The position numbers and the translations under genes are program-made. DNA of 64,000 bases from Armatimonadetes bacterium CG2_30_59_28 (lineage in GTDB: Bacteria; Armatimonadota; Abditibacteriia; CG2-30-59-28). The stretch is taken from the NCBI GenBank assembly GCA_001872605.1, contig MNXM01000153.1, positions 5,100 through 69,099 on the forward strand. Direction: 5' to 3'. Below the pieces are notes generated by a model. That model ran no database searches. It was not told where the DNA came from and was given only the letters and a program-made list of their open reading frames with translations. Shown in pieces: positions 11,080 through 51,225 of the stretch (position 1 is its first letter; each line of letters starts with the position of its first letter).

Positions 11080-11255
11080 GGGTGTCAGTCAGATTTGTGA
11101 GAATCCACCCCAGCCGGAACCATAGGCGCCTGTAGCCTGAAACCCGACAGTGATTGTGTAACGCAGTTCGCGGTTCGTCGGTCCTGAGTGAGTTCATGCC
11201 TGGCCGACCCCAGGGCGCTGATTACCTCCGCGCGTCACAAATCTGACTTGCACCC
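11080..11255 (+). mobile_element. MITE family A, copy 3 (176 bp, palindromic core deleted)
   Basis: TIRs GGGTGTCAGTCAGATTTGTGA and TCACAAATCTGACTTGCACCC; flanks TCTGCGGCC/TCTGCTGCT (degenerate 9-bp duplication, 7/9). Confidence 0.88.
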
Positions 11256-14681: not shown

Positions 14682-16238
14682 ATGGATAGAGACTGGCGCC
14701 AAGGCGTTGAACTTCTGAAATCCGGCAACCTGCCGGACGCGCTGCGCGTTTTGCGCGATGCGTCGCGGGCAAATCCGGAATCATTTGATTCCCACTTCTA
14801 TCTTGGCATTGCAGAAGCGAAGGCGGGGAAACTCTCCCAGTCCCGTGAGTCTTTCCAGAAAGCCCTCTCCCTGCAACGCGATCATGCTCCCACCTACTTC
14901 AATCTGGGACTGGCCTTTGAGAAAGAGGGACGTCTGCGGGAGGCCATGGCCCACTACCAGCAGGCGTTGCGGTATGCGCCCGGTCATGTGCCTGCGCGTG
15001 AGGCGGTTGCGAGGCTGACCCCGCGTTCCGCTGTAGAGATTGCCCCCCGACCGGGTTCGACGTCCACTCCCCCGGATGAAGCGGAGCGCGTTCTCTGCAA
15101 GCTTTGCGGAATGCAGACGCGCGAGGGCGATGCCTGTGAGTGGTGTCATCAGCCGCTGGAAGCTGTCCAGCCCCACCTTCTGCTGTCACCCGATTCCCGT
15201 CCAGGCGTTCCCCCCGCCGCGGCCAGCGAGCCACCGCGCGTTCCGGCCCACGCCAGTGTTCCTTCCGGAACGTCCGACCCCACCGCCACCATGGGATTGC
15301 CGGTTCTGCGCGGACAGGTGATGCCGCAGTACCATCGCTCTACCGGCTTCTTCGACAGTCTCAGTCGAGGATGGCTGTTCATCCAGAGCGCATACTCGCT
15401 GGCGTTCCAAAAAAAGGTTCTCCTCTTACCGGTATTGTATGGAGGGATTGCCAGCTTCATTTACAGCGCGGCAATCCTTGCCGTCGCATTACTGACGTGG
15501 CATGCTGCTGGTCGGCCAACCGGAGACGCGCTTAAGCAGTGGTCGGAGATGAACCGCGCACTGCTTTCAATCCTGTCCGTCGCGATACTGTTTGGCTCCA
15601 TGTCCATCGGGTACTTCTTCATGGGGATGACGGTCAACATGATCGATGCCTACCTGAAGGGTCGTGAACCGAACGTCCGCGTCGCGTGGCGCGACGCAAT
15701 GAAGAACATCGGCGCCATCTGCGCTCTGGCTGTGGTCGGCACCCTTGTTGAACTTGTTCTCTCCGCTATCAAACGACGATCACGCGAGGCTGGCGGTCTG
15801 GGAGGGATGGTCACCGCTGGCATCGCGTCCGCGATCGAGACGGCCTGGACGGTGCTTTCGTTTCTTCTCATGCCAGTCATCATCATCGAAGACACCACCC
15901 TCCGCAATGCGCTTGCGCGAGTTCGCGATATCCATCGCAGGAATCTCCTGCAGATCGGCGTTGGCGAGGTGGGTTTGAGGATTGTGGTGTCGGTGATCGG
16001 GATGCTCTTTGTATTGGCGCTTTTCGGTCTCGGAAGGTTGCTGCTTCCCGCCGGGGTTCCGGGTATCGCATTCTTCGCTGTCATCGGTGTGACGGGTCTC
16101 GCCATCATCAACTTGCTCAACGCCTTCGCCCGCGCCAGTTACTACACTTGCCTCTATCTTTGGGCCGTGGAAGTGGAGCATGCGCCCGTGGCGTCCCGCG
16201 CTCTCGTCCCTCAACCACTGGCCGCGGCGCTCGCATGA
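14682..16238 (+). CDS. TPR repeat + Cys4 zinc ribbon + Pro-rich linker + DUF6159-like membrane domain protein
   Basis: Three TPR-like repeats, CKLC...CEWC, C-terminal multi-TM region with WTVLSFLLMPVIIIE and YYTCLYLWA. Confidence 0.6.
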   Translation: MDRDWRQGVELLKSGNLPDALRVLRDASRANPESFDSHFYLGIAEAKAGKLSQSRESFQKALSLQRDHAPTYFNLGLAFEKEGRLREAMAHYQQALRYAPGHVPAREAVARLTPRSAVEIAPRPGSTSTPPDEAERVLCKLCGMQTREGDACEWCHQPLEAVQPHLLLSPDSRPGVPPAAASEPPRVPAHASVPSGTSDPTATMGLPVLRGQVMPQYHRSTGFFDSLSRGWLFIQSAYSLAFQKKVLLLPVLYGGIASFIYSAAILAVALLTWHAAGRPTGDALKQWSEMNRALLSILSVAILFGSMSIGYFFMGMTVNMIDAYLKGREPNVRVAWRDAMKNIGAICALAVVGTLVELVLSAIKRRSREAGGLGGMVTAGIASAIETAWTVLSFLLMPVIIIEDTTLRNALARVRDIHRRNLLQIGVGEVGLRIVVSVIGMLFVLALFGLGRLLLPAGVPGIAFFAVIGVTGLAIINLLNAFARASYYTCLYLWAVEVEHAPVASRALVPQPLAAALA

Positions 16239-17116
16239 ACAACAACCATGCAATGAGCGCCGCGTCGCCAGACCCGATCGCTTACCATCGATCCCGCGCA
16301 GGGGCGCTCGCCCTCTTCGGCATCTGCTCCCTCGTGGGTTGCGCGAGCCGCGAAAACATTCATGCTCCTATGGATCGAGGGGGTCCGCCGTCAATGCCCT
16401 CGCAGTCTGTGCCTCGACCCAACGAAGTCAAACCTGAACGCCGCGGCGCTCCGCCGAGGCAATCACCTCTGTCCGAAAGTAGCCTCACTGCTACCCGCTG
16501 CTTCCCCCTCGCCGAGGGCAACCACTGGCTGTACGAGGTCGAGGACTCCAAGGGCGCGAGATACTACTCCGAATACCAGATCGAAAGAATTGAGGAAATT
16601 GACGGGAAGAAGTTCTACGTTTCGCTCAATACCATGAGCAATCAGCCCAATTTGTTCACCCGACTCTACCTCACCCACACTCCAGCCGGGTTGAGCAACC
16701 ACCGAATCATCACTACGTCCGGGCACAAATCGGCTGTTGTGGACTATGGTTCCCGGTCAGACCTGCCTGTTCAACTCCCCACTCGCCTCACTTCTGACAC
16801 CGAGTGGCAGTCGCGAGTCGATGCGAAAGTATACGCGACGCATACCACGGAGACTTACCACCTCCGCGGAAGAGTCGAGGGCGAGGAAGTGATCTCAGTC
16901 CCGGCGGGGGAGTTCGCGGCGGCGCGAGTCGTTACGGTGACGCAGTGGCAAGGGAAGTCATCAACCACCACGGCGTGGTATGCGCCCGGGGTTGGTCAGA
17001 TCAAGTTTACGAACGTGACCGGCGATTGGAGGCATACCTACTCGCTGCGTGGCGCCCGTTTGGGCGACAGAAAGTACGGTTCCTTCTCGCAGAATGAGGT
17101 TGCCGACACGCGCTGA
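16235..17116 (+). CDS. Putative lipoprotein with beta-rich domain (DUF3108/TapB-like)
   Basis: Lipobox LVGC; FPLAEGNHWLY, EVISVPAGEF, WYAPGVGQIK; ATGA overlap with upstream gene. Confidence 0.6.
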   Translation: MNNNHAMSAASPDPIAYHRSRAGALALFGICSLVGCASRENIHAPMDRGGPPSMPSQSVPRPNEVKPERRGAPPRQSPLSESSLTATRCFPLAEGNHWLYEVEDSKGARYYSEYQIERIEEIDGKKFYVSLNTMSNQPNLFTRLYLTHTPAGLSNHRIITTSGHKSAVVDYGSRSDLPVQLPTRLTSDTEWQSRVDAKVYATHTTETYHLRGRVEGEEVISVPAGEFAAARVVTVTQWQGKSSTTTAWYAPGVGQIKFTNVTGDWRHTYSLRGARLGDRKYGSFSQNEVADTR

Positions 17117-31860: not shown

Positions 31861-31948
31861 TATACTCGTCACGGGTGAAAATACGCCTTGCCCCGAGCGT
31901 TCCGTTGTAGGGGATACAAGAGGTGGATTTCCACGGGCGACGAGTATA
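31861..31948. mobile_element. Small TIR element (MITE-like, 88 bp)
   Basis: Perfect 10-bp IR TATACTCGTC/GACGAGTATA extending imperfectly to 22 bp (18/22). Confidence 0.5.
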
Positions 31949-48904: not shown

Positions 48905-49330
48905 CTAATGGTCCTCGTCGTGTCCATGGCCCTCGTGGGCATGGCCAATCTTAGCTTCCAAGAACATCCCGCATTCCGAGCATTTTCCTGGTTTGTCCCG
49001 TTTCACTTCAGGATGCATGGGGCAGATGTAAGTGACCTTGGTTCCTTCCGGCGCTTTTGCCTGGAGGAACATTCCGCACTTTGGGCATTTCCCCGGCTTG
49101 TCCTGCTGGACGTCGGGATGCATCGGACACGTGTACGTGATATTCGCGGCGTCCGTGCCACTTTCACTGCCGGATTCCGGCGTCGCTGCCGGCGCTTCCG
49201 GCGGAGTCGCCATCGGAGGGGGAGCCACTCCCCCTTCTGACGACAAGTTGCTGCTGTTCTTGCTGCACCCCCACAGGGCGAAAGCTGCGATTCCGAGCAG
49301 CAGTCCCAGGATTGTTACGCGTTTCAACAT
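48905..49330 (-). CDS. Lipoprotein with two HMBD repeats and His-rich tail
   Basis: Lipobox LWGC; YTCPMHP...CPKCGMFL, YICPMHP...CSECGMFL; HAHEGHGHDEDH. Confidence 0.88.
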   Translation of the reverse strand: MLKRVTILGLLLGIAAFALWGCSKNSSNLSSEGGVAPPPMATPPEAPAATPESGSESGTDAANITYTCPMHPDVQQDKPGKCPKCGMFLQAKAPEGTKVTYICPMHPEVKRDKPGKCSECGMFLEAKIGHAHEGHGHDEDH

Positions 49331-49411
49331 CTAACCTTACCTCCAATCAAGTGTTTCCCTCGGCGGGATTCATCCATTCACATCGCGGGCGGCGGTCTCT
49401 TCGTTACCTTC

Positions 49412-49574
49412 GGGTGCATCCCGGAATTACGGAAAAGCGGATACATCGATTTTGTCGCCGTAGGATAAAGCTCCAGCTTTGTCAGTGGCAGACCTCTTTC
49501 CCGCAATTCCAATGTGTATCTGACAAAGCTGGAGCTTTATCCTACGGCAATCTCCGTAATTCCGGGATGCACCC
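49412..49574. mobile_element. MITE family B (GGGTG...CACCC ends, 163 bp) enclosing a REP doublet
   Basis: Perfect 22-bp TIR GGGTGCATCCCGGAATTACGGA; flanks TTACCTTC/TTACCTTT. Confidence 0.88.
49457..49548. repeat. GTAG-type REP doublet (REPIN-like), 29-bp perfect inverted arms
   Basis: GCCGTAGGATAAAGCTCCAGCTTTGTCAG and its exact inverse; GTAG followed by hairpin GATAAAGCT-CC-AGCTTTGTC. Confidence 0.8.
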
Positions 49575-49588
49575 TTACCTTTTGCGTA

Positions 49589-50242
49589 TCAGTGAGTATG
49601 TCGATGGCCACCTCCTTCATCGCCCTCGTGATGGTCGGGAGAGGGAGTGGCGGTTTGGTGATGTTCCTCCGCCTCGGCAGGCATTTCAGTTTCCGCAGGG
49701 GTTTGCATGTTCTCGTGGTGACCGCCGGGAGACGCGCCACCGTGGTGATGAAACACTTCTTCAGCAGGCGCCACGAGGGGCACGGCGATTCTAACGGCCG
49801 CCCCCTCAACGAACACCATGCGGCTCCCAATATCCGCCGTTTGCAGGATCAGCAGCACGGTGACGGCCAACACGGCCACGAACGCCCACATACCTTTGGG
49901 TTGCGACTGACTCTGCCAAAAGCTCCAGAGGGTGAGGGCCCCCGCAAGCCCGAGGGTCATCCATCCTACTGCCTTGTGCGTTTGCATCATGGCATGTATC
50001 GTCGCATTGTGAGGGAAGGACTCCTGCGCCCCCAGACCAGTCAGAAAAGCAAGCAAAACGCCCGCAGTGCCCAGATAAAGGCACGTTCTGCCAGCGCCCG
50101 AGAAGAACGGTTTCTTCAGAACCGCTCCGAGAAAGTATAGCAACAGTGCGCTGGGGAACAGCGCGATAGGGAAATGAACGAACATGGGGTGGACATTGTA
50201 GACCTCCCGAATTCCCTGAAAACCCAAGTGACTGAAATTCAT
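49589..50242 (-). CDS. DUF2231-like membrane protein with His-rich C-terminal tail
   Basis: NVHPMFVHFPIAL, LTGL, THK, TADIGSRMVF; 4 TM; HHH-rich tail. Confidence 0.82.
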   Translation of the reverse strand: MNFSHLGFQGIREVYNVHPMFVHFPIALFPSALLLYFLGAVLKKPFFSGAGRTCLYLGTAGVLLAFLTGLGAQESFPHNATIHAMMQTHKAVGWMTLGLAGALTLWSFWQSQSQPKGMWAFVAVLAVTVLLILQTADIGSRMVFVEGAAVRIAVPLVAPAEEVFHHHGGASPGGHHENMQTPAETEMPAEAEEHHQTATPSPDHHEGDEGGGHRHTH

Positions 50243-50938: not shown

Positions 50939-51225
50939 GGGTGCAAGTCAGATTTGTGAGAATCCACCCCAGCCGGAACCATAGGCGCCTATAATTTCGA
51001 AACCGACAGTGATTGTGTAACGGAGTTCGCGGTTTGTCGGTCCTGAGTGAGTTCATGCAACAACCCCCATCCTCGAACCCTTTGGGTTCGCGAACCCTTT
51101 GGGTTCGAGGATGGGGGTTGTTACTGTCCCCTTTCACTCGCGTAAGTCTTTCCAACCTCTCGTTTACGCCTGCCCGGCCCCAGGGAGCTGATTGCCACCA
51201 CGCATCACAAATCTTACTTACACCC
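50939..51225 (-). mobile_element. MITE family A, copy 2 (complete, 287 bp)
   Basis: TIRs GGGTGCAAGTCAGATTTGTGA / TCACAAATCTTACTTACACCC; flanks AAAACATCC/GAAACATCC; central nested palindrome. Confidence 0.92.

Follow-up and report, generated by a model that had tools for sequence, protein, structure and literature searches.

A 163-bp repeat lying between two genes of a metal-handling operon is probably a non-autonomous DDE-type MITE, with ends that we call O, that carries as its cargo an outward-GTAG ('HH') doublet of the main REP unit of the genome. In the literature, REPs and REPINs on the one hand and MITEs on the other are separate kinds of mini-repeat with different enzymes and dynamics: REPINs depend on a Y1/HUH RAYT and are slow, vertically inherited and long-lived, whereas MITEs are moved by DDE transposases and are fast and short-lived. 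Here a single element bears both signatures, a concrete and testable instance of hitch-hiking by one class of repeat on a second. Each of the two classes is well known; the finding is computational and comes from fragmented MAGs.

The window, that is, the whole 64,000-nt stretch of DNA analysed, belongs to a MAG (G000) of 5.49 Mb in 344 contigs, with a GC content of 58.5% and a completeness of 89.8%; numbers preceded by C designate its contigs. Comparisons were made with a sister genus (G001) and with a genome of another family (G003, 66% GC). All of these genomes are fragmented MAGs, 72–93% complete, with contigs broken by repeats.

Anatomy of the element

The first-pass annotation of this DNA had described 22-bp terminal inverted repeats, a nested 29-bp inverted pair and a target duplication matching at 7 of 8 positions, and all three are present as described. 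The outer arms, 22 nt each, are 100% complementary and stand 119 nt apart; the inner arms, 29 nt each and likewise 100% complementary, are separated by 34 nt. Each inner arm has the layout GCC-GTAG-GATAAAGCT-CC-AGCTTTGTC-AG, so that the proposed GTAG plus imperfect hairpin is indeed there, as a 9-bp stem with one T.G pair following the tetramer. The element is 163 bp long and has no coding capacity. Its parts and the two neighbouring genes are the following (strand given where one applies):

48905–49330, minus strand: small HMBD heavy-metal-binding protein gene, downstream in the operon (PF19335, E 4.5e-31)
49404–49411: left target-site duplication TTACCTTC, 7/8 match to 49575–49582
49412–49433: left terminal inverted repeat O, GGGTGCATCCCGGAATTACGGA, one half of a perfect 22-nt pair
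49434–49456: 23-nt spacer, unpaired partner of the opposite 4-nt spacer, a 19-nt bulge in the predicted fold
49457–49485, plus strand: REP arm I, with the conserved 26-nt unit CCGTAGGATAAAGCTCCAGCTTTGTC at 49458–49483; GTAG tag and hairpin, conserved T.G
49486–49519: 34-nt loop between the REP arms, family-specific, with a 5-bp apical hairpin in the predicted fold
49520–49548, minus strand: REP arm I', the inverted copy; GTAG ends point outward, the 'HH' dimer of Di Nocera et al. (PMC3733652)
49549–49552: 4-nt spacer AATC
49553–49574: right terminal inverted repeat O', in perfect pairing with the left O
49575–49582: right target-site duplication TTACCTTT, 7/8 match to the left flank
49589–50242, minus strand: DUF2231 membrane protein gene, upstream in the operon (PF09990, E 2e-18)

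The outer repeats bound a MITE family

Full-length 163-bp elements were found on about 12 contigs of G000, in unrelated intergenic contexts and with pairwise identities of 91–98%. Two positions separate the window copy from the family consensus, and the perfect 22-nt terminal pair is conserved in all full copies. Both flanks are available for 11 copies. Five of these lie between perfect 8- or 9-bp direct repeats that differ from copy to copy (TACGTCTG, GTGACAATG, CTGGGATG, ATGGAAGA and CTCTCTGCC; the expected chance of a perfect abutting 8-mer is about 1.5e-5 per copy), two, including the window copy, have a repeat matching at 7/8, and four have no recognisable target duplication. Copy-specific 8–9-bp duplications thus accompany 7/11 copies, the mark of a staggered-cut insertion of the DDE type.

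The same order of parts (O, short spacer, REP, loop, REP, spacer, O) recurs in G001, in versions of 140–142 bp whose spacers and loops are unlike those of G000. Both of the G001 versions inspected have perfect 9-bp duplications (ATCCCACTC and GATGAGGGA). Separately, there is a collapsed 30-bp O>O< relic with a duplication matching at 8/9. The DDE-type ends claimed at first pass are therefore borne out by duplications in two genera, and by its sequence hallmarks the 163-bp element is a true non-autonomous DDE-type MITE. O ends would be recognised in trans by a transposase making 8–9-bp staggered cuts in its target, and the composite of O ends and REP doublet was amplified as one unit in both G000 and its sister genus.

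Genome-wide, O ends have 64 matches in G000, almost always adjoining a REP arm. In 99 metagenome stretches, paired O ends delimit elements of 30, 105, 156, 163, 206, 211 and 259 bp. Within the 163-bp family the loop is the most variable segment (4.7% vs 1.4–2.7% elsewhere), and conservation of the arms and ends does not significantly exceed that of the spacers (Fisher p 0.07 and 0.19).

Apparently symmetric 144-bp copies on contigs C86 and C327, and also copies at C115:996 and on C174, were rejected as assembly fold-back artefacts. The contig ends concerned (C86:1–1124, C327:28622–29745, C115:~1–2070 and C174:~15600–16333) double back at a palindromic repeat, their flanks being reverse-complementary over 490 bp at 99.8–100%, and all four copies were left out of the counts.

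Could O instead be a further, TIRtron-type palindromic unit in a BIME-like mosaic assembled and spread by HUH/Y1 enzymes or by host recombination? Di Nocera et al. (PMC3733652) have described TIRs in which degenerate GTAG units are combined with unrelated stem-loops. A near-palindrome, CCGGAATTACGG, lies within O, O scarcely ever occurs apart from a REP arm, and mosaic and hybrid variants are numerous (see below). However, the copy-specific 8–9-bp duplications abut O exactly in 7/11 G000 copies and in 2/2 of those inspected in G001, and Y1/HUH transposition leaves no target duplication. Moreover, O ends flank none of the Y1 genes. We give such a mosaic very little credence next to a DDE-type MITE with a REP cargo.

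The inner arm belongs to a GTAG-REP family

The 26-nt unit CCGTAGGATAAAGCTCCAGCTTTGTC has sharp boundaries and 191–193 copies in G000, against 0 for the reversed motif. With about 12 full-length copies, and with this number of REP cores against none for the reversed core motif, the 163-bp structure is far beyond chance. In a more general form, a GTAG tetramer plus a hairpin of 9 pairs, no more than one of them a G.T wobble, was counted 154 times, vs 4–35 times for four control tetramers. Minor REP types (GTTAGAGCTCCAGCTCTGAC; GATAGAGCT..AGCTCTGTC; GTTAGACCT..AGGTCTGAC; GTTAGGGCTCCCGCCCTGAC) keep the 5' CCGTAGG and the T.G pair, and their stems are altered by paired, compensatory substitutions: GTTAGAGCT/AGCTCTGAC, GATAGAGCT/AGCTCTGTC, GTTAGACCT/AGGTCTGAC and GTTAGGGC/GCCCTGAC, with five stem variants showing paired changes in all.

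Units are arranged as singlets, in head-to-tail tandem series and in hetero-doublets that combine two types. Outward-GTAG doublets that are bare, lacking both TIRs and flanking duplications, and whose loops are unique are present in G000 and G003. A repertoire of singlets, dimers and clusters (REP/BIME) was described for GTAG REPs by Di Nocera et al. (PMC3733652). In a search of 401 genomes from the phylum and of the full set of 185,579 species representatives, the exact unit was limited to G000, G001 and G003. In G003, which has no O ends, the identical 26-mer occurs only as bare doublets whose loops are unrelated; the contigs that bear it have a GC content of 65–67% and are therefore G003's own.

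Where do the units of G000 reside? Of 193 units, 65 lie in O-type elements, 77 in elements of a second, B-type family (see below), 7 in B/O hybrids and 44 near neither MITE end, so that 77% are inside one of two MITE families. The first-pass annotation had called the arms REPs and proposed to count arm and TIR separately. Counted in this way, the REP arm is often found without O (as singlets, as bare doublets and in the second MITE), while O is almost never found without REP, and the 44 free units belong to the same GTAG family. The REP unit occurs outside the TIR pair and is therefore not confined to it. On this distribution the unit is an independent family of about 190 copies that is older than the composite, and form and distribution together identify the cargo as a REP.

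One tandem array, at C260:10830–10985, has a 74-nt period and runs off the contig end; each period is a hetero-doublet in which CCGTAGGTTAGGGCTCCCGCCCTGAC runs forward and the main REP unit runs in reverse.

A second MITE family encloses the same REP doublet

B-type elements measure about 181 bp, have the ends TATACTCGTTAAGGTTGAG.../...CTCAACCTTAACGAGTATA and contain the REP doublet at their centre; there are about 20 full copies and further partial ones, some 35 REP-bearing B copies in all. What appeared to be '79-bp doublets' are not bare and sit at the centre of such elements. TA is found at both extremities of every REP-bearing B-type copy. Since the REP arm occurs in two MITE families with unrelated ends and different duplications, it is part of neither transposon's end. 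No REP-free B copy with matching inner sequence was found that would mark a clean REPIN insertion site within a B element.

The B end has 245 matches in G000 and bounds many elements with quite different nested palindromes inside. Ends of this superfamily, TATACTCGTTA[A/C]GG..., are seen for example at C340:77729–77850, outside the window, and at 31861–31879 within it. TA borders the superfamily's elements on either side, which suggests the TA duplication of IS630/mariner-type elements. Members of 46, 53, 94, 104 and 122 bp have different nested G/C-rich palindromes as their interiors.

Several features of the B copies point to rearrangement around the REP core: (i) the loop between the REP arms is found in both orientations; (ii) in some copies (C75:5170, C94, C104:19618 and C59) the doublet is collapsed to a single hairpin; and (iii) B/O hybrids with one O end, one B end and a joint REP core occur at C100:14537–14603, C289:1101–1213, C26:6526–6676, C290:6705–6855 and C104:3530–3688. 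The first of these hybrids was also found at the metagenome loci L103, L119, L120 and L121; its recurrence in four independent samples indicates that it is real. B/O hybrids may mark recombination between elements at different loci, and the REP arms are evidently substrates for hairpin- or homology-driven rearrangement. In the collapsed copies the doublet is reduced to one perfect 34-bp palindrome, GCCGTAGGATAAAGCTCCAGCTTTATCCTACGGC, corresponding to a deletion between the hairpin centres of both arms.

The history of the repeat that these observations support best would start from an older family of REP doublets, bare in G003. The doublet would have been enclosed by O ends before G000 and G001 split, or by later transfer between them. 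In G000 it would have been enclosed by B ends too, and thereafter would have spread mainly as MITE cargo. The REP population would then have grown chiefly by hitch-hiking on DDE transposition and not through a RAYT. More tentatively, REP doublets might in this way escape dependence on a RAYT altogether, through two unrelated MITE captures, with most of the REP population now replicating as cargo and its cognate RAYT gone, and with the REP core as a hub at which ends are swapped, a scenario that we consider possible but rather less likely than not to hold in full. Recombination at the shared core would then yield the B/O hybrids, the loop flips and the collapsed forms.

No RAYT found beside this REP

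The first-pass annotation had proposed to look for a RAYT flanked by this REP. None was found in G000, G001 or G003: among 8 PF01797 matches in G000 and 9 in G001 and G003 (MAGs 72–93% complete), none has this REP within 1.5 kb, and a tblastn search with the G000 Y1 proteins against all fetched loci likewise returned no such gene. The label 'RAYT substrate' is therefore one of form. Four Y1 genes of G000 (C308:1189–1674; C14:7366–end plus C33:start–265; C41:6432–7424; C78:4748–5587) are each flanked by tandem repeats of their own. Their arrays represent four mutually different REP-like classes in the REPtron layout, none of them the CCGTAGGATAAAGCTCCAGCTTTGTC unit.

Two candidate locations for a hidden RAYT were rejected. 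On C32, a tandem REP array reaches the contig end, and PFTT01000598.1 reads through it to reveal a B-element remnant between two epimerase genes. On C136, C155 and C290, REP clusters lie 2–3 kb apart and the intervals hold only ordinary genes.

Two of the four array-flanked Y1 proteins (279 and 330 aa) contain a tandem pair of Y1 domains, and CTGTAGCC occurs in the repeats of both. Another Y1-type gene, at C115:20909–21715 on the minus strand, has a C-terminal HTH-like extension and is interrupted near its 5' end by a B-type MITE fragment, as is also seen in the metagenome (L165:500–1100); it is probably a pseudogene.

These results bear on a simpler account, in which the element is a plain MITE whose interior happens to be palindromic: the arm would belong to the MITEs of this lineage as a structural module unrelated to RAYT-type REPs, and the bare copies would be decayed MITE remnants. 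No cognate RAYT is found in three genomes, as this account would have it, and 77% of the units are within MITEs; B-type MITEs hold many other nested palindromes as interiors, and the tandem arrays examined proved to be inside B-element remnants. Yet bare doublets with unique loops and flanks and with neither TIR nor duplication exist in G000 and also in G003, which has no O ends, and one and the same arm sits inside two MITE families that differ in ends and duplications. The GTAG tag, the sharp 26-nt unit, the compensatory stems and the hetero-doublets are, besides, defining features of REP/BIME repeats (PMC3733652). We therefore regard a mere internal palindrome as improbable, if the most serious competitor of a MITE carrying a true REP doublet.

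The parent transposase and the ISKra4 group

Which transposase would act on O? An autonomous IS bounded by O was not found in G000, in G001 or in the 99 metagenome stretches; in these MAGs, IS copies collapse at contig ends. Single O ends of G000 have no autonomous IS attached, and pairs of O prefixes 0.4–4 kb apart enclose no IS; the sole 3-kb pair encloses a YidC-like gene. The IS256/Mutator-type transposase domain PF00872 is absent from G000 and G001, and matches to PF01609 (IS4/IS5-type) have ends unrelated to O.

C-terminal fragments of ISKra4-family transposases were found at contig ends (C20:1–200, C296:9050–9251 and C236:11650–12068); this IS has several copies, which the assembly has collapsed. 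Two copies define its end as ...GGATTATGCACAC (...TCCCTGACATCAGAATGGATTATGCACAC), which reads GTGTGCAT from the outside in and agrees with the O terminus GGGTGCAT at 7/8, the two being unrelated beyond 8 nt. The 8–9-bp target duplication expected of a Mutator-superfamily derivative is found in the O family, although duplications of this length are not specific, with IS1, IS903, ISAs1 and other families making similar ones. ISKra4 is a member of the prokaryotic Mutator superfamily, and part of the group inserts upstream of sigma-A promoters (PMC3942029). O copies have no preference for sites 15–17 bp upstream of sigma-A/sigma-70 promoters: the best promoter score beside 12 O copies averages 4.4 of 12, equal to that of 3000 random sites, and none reaches 10.

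The 'Mutator-like' label proposed at first pass is thus weakly favoured by the ISKra4 fragments and the 7/8 match of the ends, and disfavoured by the lack of PF00872 and of an IS with matching ends. We consider this assignment of the O family a reasonable lead, under which the parent IS would lie in the ISKra4 group, within the prokaryotic Mutator superfamily. The wider claim of two mobility signals in one element holds as regards the DDE-type MITE and the form and distribution of its REP cargo; it does not extend to a RAYT link or to a firm Mutator label.

Another MITE of the window, family A, has the ends GGGTGCAAGTCAGATTTGTGA (GGGTGCAAGTC...) and lies at 50939–51225 and 11080–11255, with a further copy at C215:12232–12515 in G000. 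It has the terminal heptamer GGGTGCA in common with the O ends and is flanked by 8–9-bp duplications. Its reported placement 16 bp upstream of -35 boxes fits the promoter-targeting of ISKra4, ISLre2 and TnGBS transposases (PMC3942029).

Relation to known mini-repeats

The closest relatives of the cargo are the REPs and REPINs (REP/BIME with TnpA-REP in E. coli and the REPINs of Pseudomonas fluorescens; PMC3733652; PMC3116915), which share the 5' GTAG tag, the imperfect hairpin and a copy number above 100. Also shared are singlets, HH dimers with variable spacers, tandem clusters, hetero-dimers and compensatory sub-types, as well as bare doublets without target duplication. The present family differs in that no RAYT was found flanked by it, though four other Y1 genes have arrays of their own, and in that 77% of its units reside in DDE-type MITEs and were evidently copied along with them.

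The composite as a whole resembles DDE-derived MITEs such as Correia/NEMIS of Neisseria, ERIC/YPAL, RUP, Nezha and MITEAba12, being small and non-coding with TIRs and a target-site duplication. Like them it is multi-copy and intergenic, with copies of this class often inside operons, and is predicted to form a long RNA hairpin. In contrast to these MITEs, its interior is an independent REP doublet and not the remnant of a deleted IS, and no parent IS with matching ends was found. ISKra4-group IS (p-MULT 4; Guerillot et al. 2014, PMC3942029) share the 8–9-bp duplication length and the terminal 7/8 match, but their ends diverge from O past 8 nt, no intact cognate IS was found, and the insertion 15–17 bp upstream of sigma-70 promoters is not seen. 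Finally, the composite REP-plus-stem-loop TIRs of Pseudomonas, the 'bizarre structures' of Di Nocera et al. (2013), also combine a GTAG REP with an unrelated inverted-repeat module in many copies. Those, however, are tied to Y1 transposase genes and have no reported target duplications, whereas O appears to be the end of a DDE transposon.

According to the census, most REP copies would have been spread by DDE transposition, within two independent MITE backbones and with no cognate RAYT visible. This might explain why some REP families have no RAYT. If it were true generally, it would blur the distinction between REPINs and MITEs and provide a route by which REPs could persist or expand after the loss of their RAYT.

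The window copy is fixed within a metal operon

The element lies on the antisense strand of a row of minus-strand genes. Consistent with the metal-operon context claimed at first pass, this row comprises the DUF2231 gene, the HMBD gene and, downstream of the latter, a gene for a CusB-like membrane-fusion protein (MFP) with HMBD repeats. The element had been placed just past the DUF2231 stop codon, which is its location; the gap from the TGA (49589–91) to the element end at 49574 is 14 nt, not 15 nt as given then. On the other side, 81 nt separate the element from the ATG of the HMBD gene, which is preceded by a GGAGG Shine-Dalgarno sequence.

The locus is present in 23 independent contigs from other assemblies. 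At 6/6 listed places with both genes, the spacer between DUF2231 and HMBD is 258 nt long and identical in sequence to the window. Neither an empty site nor a presence polymorphism was found at the locus, every other assembly with the locus carrying the insertion; for such an empty-site comparison, the operon is absent from G001 and G003 is too distant. The window copy is fixed in the sampled population, and the original DUF2231–HMBD spacer was about 87 nt. The copy inserted into this 87-nt spacer of a copper-handling operon.

What would such an insertion do to the operon mRNA? As RNA in the operon direction, the element alone has a predicted folding energy of -104 kcal/mol, with helices of 24 and 31 bp separated by a 19-nt one-sided bulge; a 281-nt region is predicted to fold at -124.5 kcal/mol (z -9.9). 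No promoter, terminator or U-tract was found in the operon direction, and without a U-tract the element would not act as an intrinsic terminator. No Rfam family matched at threshold, with only generic miRNA-hairpin matches far below gathering scores. The hairpins of Correia and ERIC elements are known for RNase III processing and altered mRNA stability. Once transcribed, the element would fold into a 55-bp interrupted stem. By analogy with these elements and with REPs, the likeliest effect would plausibly be processing by RNase III or a block to 3'-exonucleases, uncoupling the levels of the upstream and downstream messages.

The stem might also be read as a dedicated cis-regulatory RNA, an attenuator or processing site that evolved for the metal operon and is no mobile insertion. 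Its position 14 nt past a stop codon within an operon, its fixation in all sampled assemblies and its extreme stability would suit such a role. But near-identical copies occupy about 12 unrelated intergenic contexts, a target duplication brackets the element, and the searches of Rfam and for a U-tract or terminator signal in the operon direction gave nothing to match it. A dedicated origin of this kind strikes us as highly unlikely. For a MITE with a REP cargo, secondary co-option as a regulatory RNA is possible, and the 55-bp hairpin, fixed as it is between two metal-handling genes that are transcribed together, may be a point of post-transcriptional control.
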